Below, in pieces: positions 3,180 through 57,159 of a DNA stretch of 64,000 nt. Origin of the DNA: a virus (lineage: Duplodnaviria; Caudoviricetes); the IMG/VR virus record IMGVR_UViG_3300028805_000061; one strand, given 5' to 3'. Numbering within the stretch: the stretch's first letter is position 1; each line of letters opens with the position of its first letter. The notes beneath the pieces are model-generated. The model was not told where the DNA came from. It did no database searches and saw nothing but the letters and a program-made list of their open reading frames with translations. The position numbers and the translations under genes were made by a program.

Positions 3180-3538
3180 TGTTAGATAGATGGTTAATTC
3201 CACAATTACAAGAAATAATTCAAATAAAAATGTCTAAAGGGGATATTCAAGCAGAATTAGATTTAACAGATTCAGAAAATAATAGTGTAATAAGAGTAGA
3301 TTTAAAACAGCTATTTATAATAGTACAAGCATTAATACAAGTACCAGGAGAAATAGGTATAGAAGAAAGAAAAGTTTCTTTAATAGAAAACCCTTTAGGT
3401 AGACAATTATTTATAATAAGAAAATATAGAGATGGGTGGCAATTAGTAAAAGATTTAACTAATTTAGGTGTAACACAACAAGATATAGCAATAAGAGATC
3501 AAGCCAGACTAATAAATCACAATTGGAATAAAGAATAA
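3161..3538 (+). CDS. hypothetical protein
   Basis: ORF with AGGAG RBS. Confidence 0.6.
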   Translation: MSITRIMLDRWLIPQLQEIIQIKMSKGDIQAELDLTDSENNSVIRVDLKQLFIIVQALIQVPGEIGIEERKVSLIENPLGRQLFIIRKYRDGWQLVKDLTNLGVTQQDIAIRDQARLINHNWNKE

Positions 3539-3632
3539 GTCCTTGTAAAGAAATATTAACAGATAAAAACTATTACTATATAAAAATTATAGTAATAATT
3601 TTTTGATATAAAAATAAGAAAGGTAAAGCAAC

Positions 3633-25550: not shown

Positions 25551-25827
25551 AATTGAAAAAGAAATAAAGAAAGCAGTAGACAATAAAATAATAAGTTGGG
25601 CTTTTATCGAATATCTAAAACATTGTGAAAGAGAAATAAGAGCTAAAATTGTAGAAAAAATTATAATGTATACTTTAGGTTCATTTTTTACATTTAATAT
25701 TCTTAATTTTATTTTCAGAAAAGAAATAGCTGAGATGATAGATGATGTTCAGAACTTAACTAAAGATAAGTTATCTGCTTTTATTGATAAATTAAAGAGA
25801 TTTAGAGCTAAAAAACATAGTAAATAA
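25540..25827 (+). CDS. membrane protein
   Basis: Single hydrophobic segment. Confidence 0.5.
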   Translation: MNPKIEKEIKKAVDNKIISWAFIEYLKHCEREIRAKIVEKIIMYTLGSFFTFNILNFIFRKEIAEMIDDVQNLTKDKLSAFIDKLKRFRAKKHSK

Positions 25828-25846
25828 AAAGTATAGGGAGAATTTC

Positions 25847-26383
25847 ATGAATTATCATGATATTACTAAGTGTGATATGCTTAATGGGGATGGTTTAAGA
25901 GTAGTTTTATGGGTTTCTGGTTGTAGTCATCATTGTAAAGGTTGTCAAAATCCACAAACTTGGGATGGAAATTCTGGAATTCTCTTTGATGAAAAAGCTA
26001 AACAAGAATTAATTGAAGCTTTAAAACCAGATTATATTAGTGGTATTACCTTTTCTGGGGGTGATCCACTATATTTATACCACAGAAGAGAAATTTTAGA
26101 GCTAATTAAGGAGCTTAAAATTTTATTTCCTATTAAAACTATATGGCTTTATACTGGTTTTACTTTAGAAGAAATAATACAGTGGCCTATAGGAAAAGAA
26201 TTACTTTCTTTAATTGATGTTTTAGTAGATGGAAGATTTATTTTAGAAGAAAGAGATCCTAATTTACAATGGGTGGGGTCACCTAATCAAAGAGTTATTG
26301 ATGTACAAAAAACTCTCCAATCTTCACATATAATAAAACATTGTGAAGTATACTACGATAGTTATAAGGGTAAGAGATATTAA
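25847..26383 (+). CDS. nrdG: anaerobic ribonucleotide reductase activating protein (radical SAM)
   Basis: NGDGLRVVLWVSGCSHHCKGCQNPQTW (CxxxCxxC), ITFSGGDPL, DVLVDGRF, GSPNQRVID. Confidence 0.95.
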   Translation: MNYHDITKCDMLNGDGLRVVLWVSGCSHHCKGCQNPQTWDGNSGILFDEKAKQELIEALKPDYISGITFSGGDPLYLYHRREILELIKELKILFPIKTIWLYTGFTLEEIIQWPIGKELLSLIDVLVDGRFILEERDPNLQWVGSPNQRVIDVQKTLQSSHIIKHCEVYYDSYKGKRY

Positions 26384-26392
26384 ATAAAAAGA

Positions 26393-26445
26393 GGAAGTAG
26401 ATAATTATCTACTTCCAAAGAAGTTTGGTAAAATATTTTGAAGTT
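26393..26445. terminator. cassette A downstream end: 24-bp palindrome (probable bidirectional terminator) plus conserved 29-mer
   Basis: ggaagtagataattatctacttcc then aaagaagtttggtaaaatattttgaagtt (28/29 identical to 54320-54348). Confidence 0.8.
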
Positions 26446-26450
26446 CCTCC

Positions 26451-27080
26451 TTAATTTCGCTTTGTGAAGGTTAAAATATCTGTTGTATCACCATTACCCT
26501 GCTGACTATAGCGATTATATCCACAACCATAAAGTTCACCATCGTTAGTTAAGTACCATGTTGTTGTATTTGAACAAGCAAAATCTTTTACATTACTTGC
26601 TCTTTGAGTAAACCTTGTAACATCTGTTGTATCGCCTGAACCTTGTTGACCGTAATTATTCCATCCACAACCATAAAGTTCACCATCGTTAGTTAGATAC
26701 CATGTAACGCTACTTGAACAAGCAACTTGTGCTACATTACTTGCTCTTTGAGTAAAATGTCTAACACTTGATGTATTTCCTGAACCTTGTTGGCCATAGT
26801 TATTACCTCCACAACCATATAATTCACCGTTGTTAGTTAGATACCATGTTGTTATATCTTGGCCAATAATTTGTGCTACGTTACTTGCACGTTGGGTAAA
26901 GGTTAAAACATTCGCTGAACTTCCTGAACCTTGTTGATAATAGTAACTATATCCACAACCATAAAGTTTACCATCGTTAGTTACATACCAAGTTGTATAA
27001 TCTGAGCAAGCAAAATCTTTTACACCACCGGCAATTTTTCGAAATCCTCCAAGGGGTTCCAATTTTGTTTTTATACCCAT
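26451..27080 (-). CDS. RCC1/BLIP-II-like repeat protein (four 48-aa blades) with MGIKTKLEPLGG tag
   Basis: Four repeats of V..(F/V)ACS...TWYLTNDGELYGCG.N.Y.QQGSG....V..FTQRASN; AGGAGG RBS on the minus strand. Confidence 0.85.
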   Translation of the reverse strand: MGIKTKLEPLGGFRKIAGGVKDFACSDYTTWYVTNDGKLYGCGYSYYYQQGSGSSANVLTFTQRASNVAQIIGQDITTWYLTNNGELYGCGGNNYGQQGSGNTSSVRHFTQRASNVAQVACSSSVTWYLTNDGELYGCGWNNYGQQGSGDTTDVTRFTQRASNVKDFACSNTTTWYLTNDGELYGCGYNRYSQQGNGDTTDILTFTKRN

Positions 27081-27112
27081 AATAATTCACCTCCTAAAAT
27101 ATTTTATCAACA

Positions 27113-27156
27113 TAAAAATACCAGTTAAAAAAAATCCTATATAGGACACTCGAAAA
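27113..27156 (-). promoter_or_regulatory. cassette A upstream element (A8 tract plus TCCTATATAGGA palindrome)
   Basis: taaaaataccagtt-A8-tcctatataggacactcgaaaa; identical to 55800-55845 except tract length. Confidence 0.75.
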
Positions 27157-27236
27157 AGCTTTATCTTTTTAACAAAAAGAAAACATTTTTTTCATTTCTA
27201 TATATACTTATAAATAATTCAAATAGGAGAAAAGAA

Positions 27237-54032: not shown

Positions 54033-54093
54033 TTTTAAAGTTATAAGCTTACATCCCTTATTAAAATATGAAATTAATAGGAGAAAATTTAAT

Positions 54094-54297
54094 ATGGATG
54101 AAGAATTAGAGAATAATTATAATACTTCTTATATAGTTATTCAGGAAATTGATACAATGGTAACAAAATCTATTACTGTTTTAGGAGAATTTGAAAATGA
54201 AGAAGAGGCTAAAGAATTTATAAAGTATTATAAAACTATTCAAAAGCCTGTTTCTGGCTATATAAAATATAGAATATCTCTTTTTTATAGAAAATAA
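54094..54297 (+). CDS. small hypothetical protein
   Basis: AGGAG RBS; LGEFENEEEAKEFIK. Confidence 0.6.
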   Translation: MDEELENNYNTSYIVIQEIDTMVTKSITVLGEFENEEEAKEFIKYYKTIQKPVSGYIKYRISLFYRK

Positions 54298-54299
54298 AA

Positions 54300-54348
54300 G
54301 GAGAACATAAATGTTCTCCAAAGAAGTTTGATAAAATATTTTGAAGTT
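54300..54348. terminator. cassette B downstream end: hairpin plus conserved 29-mer
   Basis: ggagaacat-aa-atgttctcc then aaagaagtttgataaaatattttgaagtt. Confidence 0.8.
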
Positions 54349-54352
54349 TAAA

Positions 54353-54442
54353 CTAATATTTCTTAGTAAAAGTCCAGACATTAGCAGTACTACTATCACC
54401 TTGCTGACTATAAAAATATTTCTTATATAATTTCTTTTTCAT
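54353..54442 (-). pseudogene. 29-codon mini-ORF carrying the last half-blade of an RCC1-repeat gene (remnant)
   Basis: MKKKLYKKYF-YSQQGDSSTANVWTFTKKY*; last 19 aa align with YSQQGNGDTTDILTFTKRN* of 26451-27080; AAAGGA RBS. Confidence 0.75.
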
Positions 54443-54458
54443 AATTTATATCCTTTCG

Positions 54459-55769
54459 TTAATAAGGTTTGCAAGAGAGGGAAGCACCAAAGTTACTATA
54501 GGTAGAAGGACTATCGCTTAAAGGGCTGTTGTAAGCCAGATACACAGAGAAAAGACCACCATTGGATATGGCATTGTAGTAGCCACCAAAATAAGCACAA
54601 CCAACGAGCGAGCTGGAAGAGCTCAGGGCGCAGCCGACTTGGTCGCAGTAGTAAGTATAATTTGAACCAGGGGTTGGATAGCCTGAAGAAGGAAAGTACC
54701 ACATAATACCATCTGAAGTATTAGGCACTCCTAAATTGCATAAATTTATACCTCCAACTCCATTATATCCAGTATACGATTTATAACCTGGGCTACTACT
54801 TGTTGGGTCATAACTAATAGCAGTGGTTCCATCTGCTGTATAATTACACAACTTATAAAATATTTTTGATTGATAACAAGTTAAACCATTTATCCATTTA
54901 TTACAATTACCCCATAAGTTTTCCATACCAAAGAATTTAACAGGTGTAGTGCTTGATGAAGTATTATTTGTAGAATAGAACATAGGCTTATCTTTTAATG
55001 AACCAGTAGAAGTCGTTTTTGTACCGCCTACAACTCCACCTCCACATTTACTTTGGCTATCTCTTGATTTAAACATTAAAATAAATAACATCTGTATCAT
55101 TTGTAATGTTCCTAAGTCAAGAAAATCCCAACCGTTACCATTTGCTTGAGCATAAGTTCTCATTGTAGTACCAGCAACTGTATTTACTAGAACAGTCCGT
55201 CCTGCTAAACTTCTTAATGTACTACCTGTCAATGATGGTTCAAAAGCTGCTGTATAAATTTCATCAAGTAAAATACCATTATTGTTATAATGTGAATAAC
55301 AATGGTATTTGCCATCTACATTTTCAGGAGCTATAAAAACATATTGATATCTGCCTGTTGCGTCGGTGCTTAAATTAGTACCATCTGCTGAATTTGAAGT
55401 TCTAAATTTAAGCCAAACTTGTGGAAAACCTATCATGCAGTTTCCTTTGTATTGTCTATTACTTATATCACTTTCAGTTCCATCAAGTTTCTTTGTAAAA
55501 TCATTATGATCTAATTCGTAATCAACTGTTCCATCATACTTTAACATTACAGGTCTTGGCTGAAAGAAAGCATTTTCCCAACTACCATAATCTAATTGAC
55601 CTGTTGTAAAATCCATGCTCGCAGGGGTATAATCAGCGTTATTGCCAAAATATGTTACTGCTGTTGTGGGATCAGAATTTGTGGTGTCTATTATAAAGCA
55701 ATATTCTTCTGCGTTTCCACCTCTTTTTATTAAACCCCCTAAAGGTTCCAATTTTGTTTTTATACCCAT
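54459..55769 (-). CDS. receptor-binding / tail-fibre-type protein with C-type lectin (DGR-target-like) C-terminus and MGIKTKLEPLGG tag
   Basis: VKFFGMENLWGNCNKWING and terminal GG.Y.....GGLF...L.....S....NFGASLSCKP are typical of CLec-fold DGR targets; AAGGAG RBS. Confidence 0.8.
   Translation of the reverse strand: MGIKTKLEPLGGLIKRGGNAEEYCFIIDTTNSDPTTAVTYFGNNADYTPASMDFTTGQLDYGSWENAFFQPRPVMLKYDGTVDYELDHNDFTKKLDGTESDISNRQYKGNCMIGFPQVWLKFRTSNSADGTNLSTDATGRYQYVFIAPENVDGKYHCYSHYNNNGILLDEIYTAAFEPSLTGSTLRSLAGRTVLVNTVAGTTMRTYAQANGNGWDFLDLGTLQMIQMLFILMFKSRDSQSKCGGGVVGGTKTTSTGSLKDKPMFYSTNNTSSSTTPVKFFGMENLWGNCNKWINGLTCYQSKIFYKLCNYTADGTTAISYDPTSSSPGYKSYTGYNGVGGINLCNLGVPNTSDGIMWYFPSSGYPTPGSNYTYYCDQVGCALSSSSSLVGCAYFGGYYNAISNGGLFSVYLAYNSPLSDSPSTYSNFGASLSCKPY
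54462..54700 (-). other. DGR variable-region-like segment
   Basis: GC spike (34/60 G+C at 54601-54660) and many NNC codons for Y/S/N/G/C at the 3' end of the CLec gene; no template repeat or RT seen in window. Confidence 0.5.
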
Positions 55770-55799
55770 TTTACTAATCTCCTTTTTAAAAGTATTTTT

Positions 55800-55845
55800 T
55801 AAAAATACCAGTTAAAAAAAAAATCCTATATAGGACACTCGAAAA
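55800..55845 (-). promoter_or_regulatory. cassette B upstream element (A10 tract plus TCCTATATAGGA palindrome)
   Basis: taaaaataccagtt-A10-tcctatataggacactcgaaaa. Confidence 0.75.
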
Positions 55846-55942
55846 GGATAAAAACAACAGAACTTCAAGAAAACTAGTAGTCACCTTTTTAAATTTTAAA
55901 TTATAATAAACTTAGAACAATGATTAAAGGAGACATATATTT

Positions 55943-56613: not shown

Positions 56614-57159
56614 ATGGCACAAAAAAGATTTGCAAAACTTATTGATGAACATCATATAGAATTTGCACCGAAAAATAAAGGTAATATTTTTAATTATGAC
56701 CTAGATGAAGATTTAATGAGAGCTGATGGTTATAAAGAATTTGTTCCAGCTACTCAAGAAGAAGGAAAAACTTATACAAATTATAGATATCAAGAAACAA
56801 GTACTAAAATTAAAGAACTTTGTGATGAAGTACCCCCTCCTACTCCAGAAGAATTATATCAACAAAGATATGAACAATTCCATAGAGAATTTTTCAATAC
56901 TTCATTAGGATATATTAGAAGAATCGTTACTAAAGCTGATGGTTCTACAGCTGATTTTCTTTTAGATTATGTATCACTAATTAATAAAGCAGTTGAATCT
57001 GGTTTACAGTATCCTATAATTACTTATGATGAACCAGACTTTAATGAAGATGTTACTGACTGGACACAATATCAACATCATGTTTATGCTACAAACCAAT
57101 TCATTTTGGAATGCTTAACTCAAGCTGGTAATGACTTTATTCCAGTAAATCCCGCTTAA
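56614..57159 (+). CDS. hypothetical, possible tail-fibre assembly-type protein
   Basis: AAGGAG RBS; DGYKEF..A and EVPPPTPEE linker pattern. Confidence 0.55.
   Translation: MAQKRFAKLIDEHHIEFAPKNKGNIFNYDLDEDLMRADGYKEFVPATQEEGKTYTNYRYQETSTKIKELCDEVPPPTPEELYQQRYEQFHREFFNTSLGYIRRIVTKADGSTADFLLDYVSLINKAVESGLQYPIITYDEPDFNEDVTDWTQYQHHVYATNQFILECLTQAGNDFIPVNPA

Follow-up and report, generated by a model that had tools for sequence, protein, structure and literature searches.

Mosaicism of distal tail-fibre and adhesin genes is well known from T-even gp37/gp38, from the P2 H/G, Mu S/U and P1 S/U family and from lambdoid stf/tfa. It is achieved through a crossover in a conserved proximal segment, by which one receptor-binding part is exchanged for another; a neighbouring gene with an assembly or accessory role is often carried along, and illegitimate junctions leave partial genes behind. 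Other arrangements to be considered here are the invertible fibre segments (Mu G, P1 C, p15B Min and the shufflons) and the phage morons, which are autonomous promoter-gene-terminator units inserted between core genes.

The head exchange described in this study is a known process and belongs to ordinary phage mosaicism, which at this locus is unusually cleanly mapped. It concerns a 29-codon open reading frame (the mini-ORF) located directly behind a CLec gene, and this frame is very probably a by-product of recombination, formed when the CLec gene together with the start of its neighbour replaced the body of an RCC1 gene, rather than a gene in its own right. Less usual are the free-standing antisense frame in which the exchange took place, the apparent passage of DNA from temperate Clostridia phages to a large AT-rich myophage, and the presence of an orphan DGR target.

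Two antisense cassettes and their shared frame

The window, that is, the whole stretch of 64,000 nucleotides that was analysed, corresponds to bases 43849-107848 of a 144,741-bp IMG/VR phage record rated complete; positions given below are those of the window unless they are marked as genome positions. The phage is contractile-tailed, encoding both a tail tube (PHROG 45) and a sheath (PF04984), and its genome has a GC content of 27.7%. Nearly all of its genes are carried by the plus strand, against which two minus-strand units, cassettes A and B, are conspicuous (Table 1). RCC1-type heads are encoded three times in the phage genome, one of them at the fibre locus.

Table 1. Coordinates of the cassettes, their parts and related genes (window positions unless marked as genome positions)
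Feature	Position	Strand	Description
Cassette A gene	26451-27080	-	209 aa, four RCC1 repeats (Pfam PF13540, PF00415, above Pfam cut-offs); the remnant corresponds to its last 60 nt
Gene C, third paralogue	genome 31391-32611 (outside the window)	+	406 aa, seven to eight RCC1 repeats
Block missing in the three closest relatives	54034-55884		1.85 kb; carries all of cassette B and a 67-aa gene on the plus strand
Upstream element	55800-55845	-	46 nt with palindrome TCCTATATAGGA; common to 27113-27156 (96%)
Leader	55744-55769	-	first 26 coding nt (MGIKTKLEP), identical in cassettes A and B and gene C
Cassette B gene (CLec)	54459-55769	-	436 aa; the mini-ORF comes next
VR-like region	54459-54649	-	47% GC; cognate TR and RT not found in the genome
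Imported segment	54440-55701	-	84% DNA identity (1015/1205) to L009 4039-5246, Clostridia MAG contig JAZNSA010000032.1
Spacer and ATG	54440-54458	-	16-nt spacer with RBS; together with the CLec stop, 22 nt that L009 has unchanged at its CLec/next-gene junction
Mini-ORF	54353-54442	-	29 codons, MKKKLYKKYFYSQQGDSSTANVWTFTKKY and stop; foreign start signal, 27 nt and RCC1 tail
Codons 2-10 of the mini-ORF	54413-54439	-	27 A/T-rich nt (KKKLYKKYF); 3' junction somewhere inside
RCC1 remnant	54353-54412	-	last 19 codons and stop; homologous to 26451-26510
32-mer	54317-54348	-	31/32 identical to 26414-26445
Intrinsic terminator hairpin of the cassette B transcript	54300-54319	-	mini-ORF lies upstream
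Resident homologue of the donor neighbour	56614-57159	+	181 aa, 54% identity, E 1e-56 (tblastn)

Three blocks, namely the 46-nt upstream element, the 26-nt leader and the 32-mer, are still 96-100% identical between cassettes A and B, and are presumably functional or homogenised by conversion. Within the phage genome the 32-mer is found at the two cassettes only. It follows the stop codon after 4 nt in B and after 5 nt in A, and is the conserved downstream block for which this very spacing had been given in the original prediction, which was made from the sequence alone. An intrinsic terminator is found 3' of each 32-mer, the stems of A and B being completely different. On either side, cassette B is bordered by sequence of the resident RCC1-cassette type, with the 46-nt element, the RBS region and the first 26 coding nt at one end, and the RCC1 tail, the 32-mer and the terminator at the other.

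Some further occurrences of these sequences were recorded. The 32-mer carries the motif AAACTTC twice, the two copies starting 20 nt apart around the palindrome AAAATATTTT. A diverged third copy of the palindromic upstream element (25/28) is present at genome 126885-126912 (L026:886-913), and the 192-aa gene behind it (genome 126294-126872, minus strand) has weak HNH endonuclease matches. Another minus-strand gene (genome 128039-129223) encodes a 394-aa protein with an internal GIRTKFNPMGG, which is similar to the cassette leader, and with a Hint/intein-like domain at its C-terminus (PF14890, below cut-off).

The three closest relatives, which were found via the tube protein (89-90% identity), lack a block that includes the whole of cassette B, and in these genomes a 143-aa gene directly adjoins the tube gene; one of them (76 kb) is also without the stretch 25754-27178, in which cassette A and a radical-SAM gene are located. 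Their absence from relatives makes it possible to recognise the cassettes as accessory indels, each of which also contains a convergent plus-strand gene: a radical-SAM/4Fe-4S gene (25847-26383) in the A indel and the 67-aa gene (54094-54297) in the B indel. The B indel is bounded on either side by a near-identical AT-only 13/14-mer (54033-54046, 55894-55906). In a more distant relative, whose tube protein shows 63% identity, the homologue of the 143-aa gene is directly followed by a pair of unrelated genes on the minus strand (L022:1915-2934), coding for a protein of 150 aa and a helix-turn-helix-like protein of 175 aa; given these unrelated insertions, the intergenic site looks like a recurrent insertion point.

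An RCC1 remnant in the small open reading frame

A 29-codon frame with its own RBS had been predicted between the CLec gene and the conserved end of the cassette, and this is what the locus contains: the frame starts 16 nt past the stop codon of the 436-aa gene, with the RBS AAAGGA located 8 nt 5' of the ATG. The claim that its last 19 residues match the end of the cassette A protein also proved correct, as the two C-termini align without gaps over these residues with 10/19 identical, and the corresponding DNA is identical at 40/60 nt including the stop codon, both stretches opening with TATAGTCAGCA. When both strands of the whole 144.7-kb genome were scanned with the remnant 60-mer, its best ungapped match was the end of gene A, other RCC1 repeats scoring 31-36 and the top non-RCC1 site 34, over a background with a mean of 17.1 and an sd of 3.4. 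A score of 40 was attained by none of 200,000 shuffles of the 60-mer, and BLASTN of B against A over 96 nt, with the downstream 32-mer block included, gave E = 5.7e-11.

A similarity of 19 residues could in principle be due to chance, or be a low-complexity artefact of an AT-rich genome, all the more so at 27.7% GC and with RCC1 repeats giving 12 possible registers. However, 40/60 is 6.8 sd above background, and the match falls exactly on the terminal repeat, is in frame, has an equal stop and is contiguous with the 31/32 block, leaving chance a practically negligible explanation; the objection foreseen in the original prediction, that the similarity might be non-significant, is thereby ruled out. 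The remnant ends in TFTK-x-x-stop, which is the terminal-repeat type (TFTKRN-stop in A, TFTKRK-stop in gene C), whereas internal RCC1 repeats have FTQRA(S/T). What is present is the second half of a terminal repeat, homologous in frame and with the stop at the equivalent position; a complete propeller-blade repeat of ~48 aa is absent, the RCC1-derived residues number 19, and the preceding 10 match nothing. As a separate observation, the tail of gene C and the 12 nt past its stop resemble those of cassette A.

The remnant has diverged from A by 33% and the adjoining 32-mer by 3%, which indicates that the remnant DNA was not kept as a conserved element. Over the 19 codons, pN against the cassette A tail is 0.23 and pS is 0.77 (saturated). 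A divergence of 33%, with pS saturated and pN only 0.23, suggests on sequence grounds that the RCC1 gene now lost had separated long before from its paralogue A, and had been under selection until the swap.

The same values have to be considered when asking whether the mini-ORF encodes a functional small protein, or is a translated element aiding expression or stability of the CLec mRNA, made of recycled pieces that are now selected. Its RBS is intact with 8-nt spacing, its 29-codon frame is open and upstream of the terminator, and its pN is lower than its pS relative to the cassette A tail; that the frame is intact, in frame and provided with a good RBS indeed counts against seeing it as a scar, and with the pN and pS values of these 19 codons, the peptide may have been under some selection or the event may be recent. 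Nevertheless, the frame is clearly a composite of two unrelated genes, the chance of an in-frame fusion is 1 in 3, pN < pS is expected anyway since the A and pre-swap B lineages were both selected, and no homologue of the whole peptide was found at any donor-type locus inspected. A functional mini-ORF is therefore regarded as improbable, and with the frame seen as a product of recombination, annotations should list the 29-codon ORF as a gene only if expression data support this.

The 11-nt direct repeat reported in the original prediction at the two ends of the remnant does exist (TAAGAAATATT, 54415-54425 and 54355-54365), but its significance did not hold up: 64 local repeats of this kind are found in this AT-rich genome, and 4% of its 110-nt windows hold one. 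Because such repeats are common in this genome, the pair was given no evidential weight.

Relatives of cassette B itself were searched for in several collections. A blastn search against 50,697 GenBank phages found no close one, IMG/VR searches with the CLec protein, the tube protein, the 32-mer and the upstream element gave no relative of the cassette, and nothing was found when JGI metagenomes were scanned with the 32-mer.

The CLec gene, its donor-type locus and the junctions

The 436-aa protein of cassette B has no Pfam match but matches PHROG 5302 'tail protein' (E 7e-51), and as a sequence search of the PDB returned nothing, a fold search was needed. With an AlphaFold2 model built on 36 homologues (pLDDT 87.8), the best Foldseek matches in the PDB were TaqVP (5vf4, E 3e-9) and Mtd (1yu0, E 2e-3), and the next-ranked ones were formylglycine-generating enzymes (FGE) and PvdO. 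The label 'CLec', which the gene had received from its sequence alone, therefore holds, in that the model predicts, for the C-terminal part, the CLec fold known from DGR variable proteins. A distant sequence match is provided by the 'BPP-1-like major tropism determinant' of Faecalibacterium phage FP_Epona.

Comparison of the CLec gene with its counterpart at the donor-type locus L009 gave a dS of 0.51, with an omega of 0.21 in the body of the gene, indicating purifying selection, and of 0.78 in the VR-like region. Against the foreign TR of L011, another CLec locus, the VR-like region differs at 20/37 adenines (54%) vs 22/102 other positions (22%). The CLec gene of L011 belongs to a complete DGR, whose VR/TR pair (L011:3060-3223 and 3438-3601) has 20/22 of its mismatches at template adenines; the downstream copy lies 215 nt past the gene end, a GC hairpin is found 3' of the VR and an RT with YVDD is encoded downstream. 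Judged from these sequences, the CLec family is a genuine DGR target. In the 144.7-kb genome of our phage, a second copy (TR) of the VR-like stretch was not found, the RT profile PF00078 had no match (control genomes being positive), and the GC hairpin seen 3' of the VR in L010, L011 and L015 is missing. The VR of this phage is accordingly an orphan, once diversified and apparently frozen, in a gene that is elsewhere under purifying selection.

The closest homologue of the CLec protein (P0002, 75% identity) is encoded on a 32.6-kb Clostridia MAG contig, with an endolysin and an integrase as neighbours. GC content, at 35.5% for CLec compared with 35.2% for the L009 locus and 27.7% for the phage genome, makes a weak argument for foreign origin, because the resident RCC1 genes also have 36-39%. 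The DNA homology to L009 stops exactly at the ATG of the gene behind CLec there, which codes for 172 aa. The string from the stop codon through the spacer to the ATG is the same in both, so that the mini-ORF can be seen to use the RBS and start codon of the donor neighbour, and the earlier proposal that CLec arrived together with the start of its neighbour is upheld by this boundary and the identical 16-nt spacer.

The gene behind CLec belongs to a family that trails CLec genes in L009, L010, L013 and L014, with an N-terminal KLINE..I.YPPKNKG and, in L013 and L014, PF14301 (DUF4376); over the first 78 residues, the L009 protein shares 60% identity with that of L013. The start of the mini-ORF coincides with the start of a member of this family. 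Coding sequence of the family past the start codon was not retained, codons 2-10 showing non-significant similarity to the four members, and the demonstrably foreign part of the neighbour is, as far as the alignments go, the RBS and ATG only. The 27 nt that follow were compared with the 5' ends of the four neighbour-family genes and with the RCC1 sequence 5' of the remnant (shuffle p 0.38-0.98), and no second copy of them was found in the phage genome. As these 27 nt match nothing, the 3' junction must lie somewhere within them. The search for a donor proposed originally led to the L009-type CLec locus; the junction string TAACGAAAGGATATAAATTATG had no IMG/VR match. A JGI match of this string (L027) was rejected, being an unrelated RBS region 5' of a small gene that adjoins an integrase.

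A homologue of the donor neighbour is resident in the phage itself, between the tail tube gene and an endolysin-like gene. It has no Pfam or PHROG match and is kept in relatives without cassette B. Should proteins of the neighbour family help CLec heads, the phage might have lost the imported copy at no cost.

At the other end of the import, the proteins of A and C continue from codon 9-10 with L-G-G-F-x-K-I-A-G-G-V, and that of B with L-G-G-L-I-K-R-G-G-N, in the manner of the L011 and L015 CLec genes; the 5' crossover was placed immediately past the 26-nt leader. The CLec genes of L010 and L013 start with MGI(K/R)T(K/R)LNP(L/M)GG, and those of L011 and L015 with MSLRTKIKPLG, a more diverged version of the leader. 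The shared leader, ~80% identical in DNA, is a substrate for homologous crossover. In L010, L011, L013 and L015 the CLec gene is preceded by a protein ending in NLQG(K/V)W, the last ~85 aa of which are 57-75% identical to the C-terminus of the phage fibre protein before gene C. This common fibre C-terminal domain implies that RCC1 and CLec heads fill the same slot in different phages. Gene C itself stands directly behind a 579-aa fibre protein that ends in NLQGKW, and its RBS region resembles that of cassette B.

With both junctions placed, the direction of the exchange can be considered. In the reverse case, CLec and its neighbour would have been the residents, and the RCC1 tail, 32-mer, terminator and 5' frame would have been grafted on later by gene conversion. 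Patchy conversion could fit the observation that the leader, the 46-nt element and the 32-mer are so much more alike in A and B than the rest, which has diverged. Against this, two separate grafts are required, one per side, and the source of the grafted tail must be a cassette 33% diverged from A; furthermore, it is the CLec interior that has relatives outside the lineage and donor-like GC, while RCC1 heads are the type present three times in the genome, including the fibre locus. We consider this reverse order highly improbable, and a change from RCC1 to CLec is the parsimonious direction as read from the sequences. The original prediction, that cassette B once held an RCC1 gene which was exchanged for CLec, stands as regards resident flanks and a foreign interior; an RCC1 gene at the B site was found in none of the relatives examined, the closest ones included. 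We infer an RCC1 predecessor at this locus, which may have sat elsewhere at the time of the swap.

Course of the exchange and comparison with known systems

According to the scheme that we propose, the ancestral state would have been an antisense cassette comprising the 46-nt promoter/operator-like element, an RBS, the MGIKTKLEPLGG leader, an RCC1 head, the 32-mer and the terminator, and the RCC1 body would have been exchanged for DNA that a Clostridia-type prophage carried at a tail-fibre locus. Leader homology would have served for the 5' crossover, CLec head genes having their own version of this sequence, and the 3' join would have been illegitimate, linking the first few codons of the donor neighbour to a point 19 codons before the RCC1 stop. 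The product would then carry CLec, followed by the donor spacer, RBS and ATG in frame with the RCC1 tail, inside the cassette transcript and upstream of its terminator. A single double crossover and an insertion followed by a deletion result in the same product and are indistinguishable; a single interior replacement explains both the resident flanks and the foreign interior. We infer this order of events, along with a mini-ORF product that has no function and a leader that serves as a fibre-docking peptide.

It is tempting to extend this to cassettes A and B as a portable expression frame, consisting of the 46-nt element, the 26-nt leader and the 32-mer with its terminator, by means of which a virulent-type myophage captures foreign heads via the leader, among them CLec heads pre-diversified by DGRs in temperate Clostridia phages, and displays them as extra heads on the same fibre as the resident RCC1 head. 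We regard this extension as doubtful, though worth stating: if true, the scar would be a snapshot of head capture, and the resident homologue of the neighbour would make the truncated copy dispensable.

The locus offers a case of head replacement in which both junctions are mapped almost to the nucleotide, with a probable direction from RCC1 propeller to CLec. It also points to Clostridia prophages as a source of genes for a 145-kb AT-rich myophage, and to the persistence of a DGR-type variable protein without its retroelement. The MGIKTKLEPLGG leader and the ~85-aa fibre C-terminal domain together form a candidate universal joint for head swaps.

When set beside the systems described above, the locus differs from fibre mosaicism in its setting, an independent antisense unit that is equipped with a promoter-like element and a terminator and is remote from the main fibre operon. 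It also differs in that the heads are an RCC1 propeller and a CLec, and in that the co-travelling gene has been reduced to an RBS and an ATG. The CLec protein is similar to the DGR variable proteins (Mtd of Bordetella phage BPP-1, 1yu0; Thermus TaqVP, 5vf4) in its fold and in a C-terminal GC-rich variable stretch ending in G-A-S-L-S-C, but unlike in DGR systems, the genome is without RT, TR or a GC hairpin after the VR.

As with invertible segments, alternative fibre ends are present in opposite orientation, and their variable parts begin with the same short sequence. In contrast to them, start codon, RBS and promoter-like element are provided separately for each cassette, and the copies are 29-68 kb apart. 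A shufflon or invertase reading was ruled out, the serine invertase PF00239 being absent from the genome (controls were positive in 12/14 genomes).

The cassettes resemble morons in having an upstream element and terminator of their own, in their location on the opposite strand, in their higher GC and in being missing from close relatives. Unlike morons, they are two units with a common frame and with the N-terminal leader of a fibre-locus gene, and cassettes A and B look like extra receptor-binding heads rather than host-directed morons.
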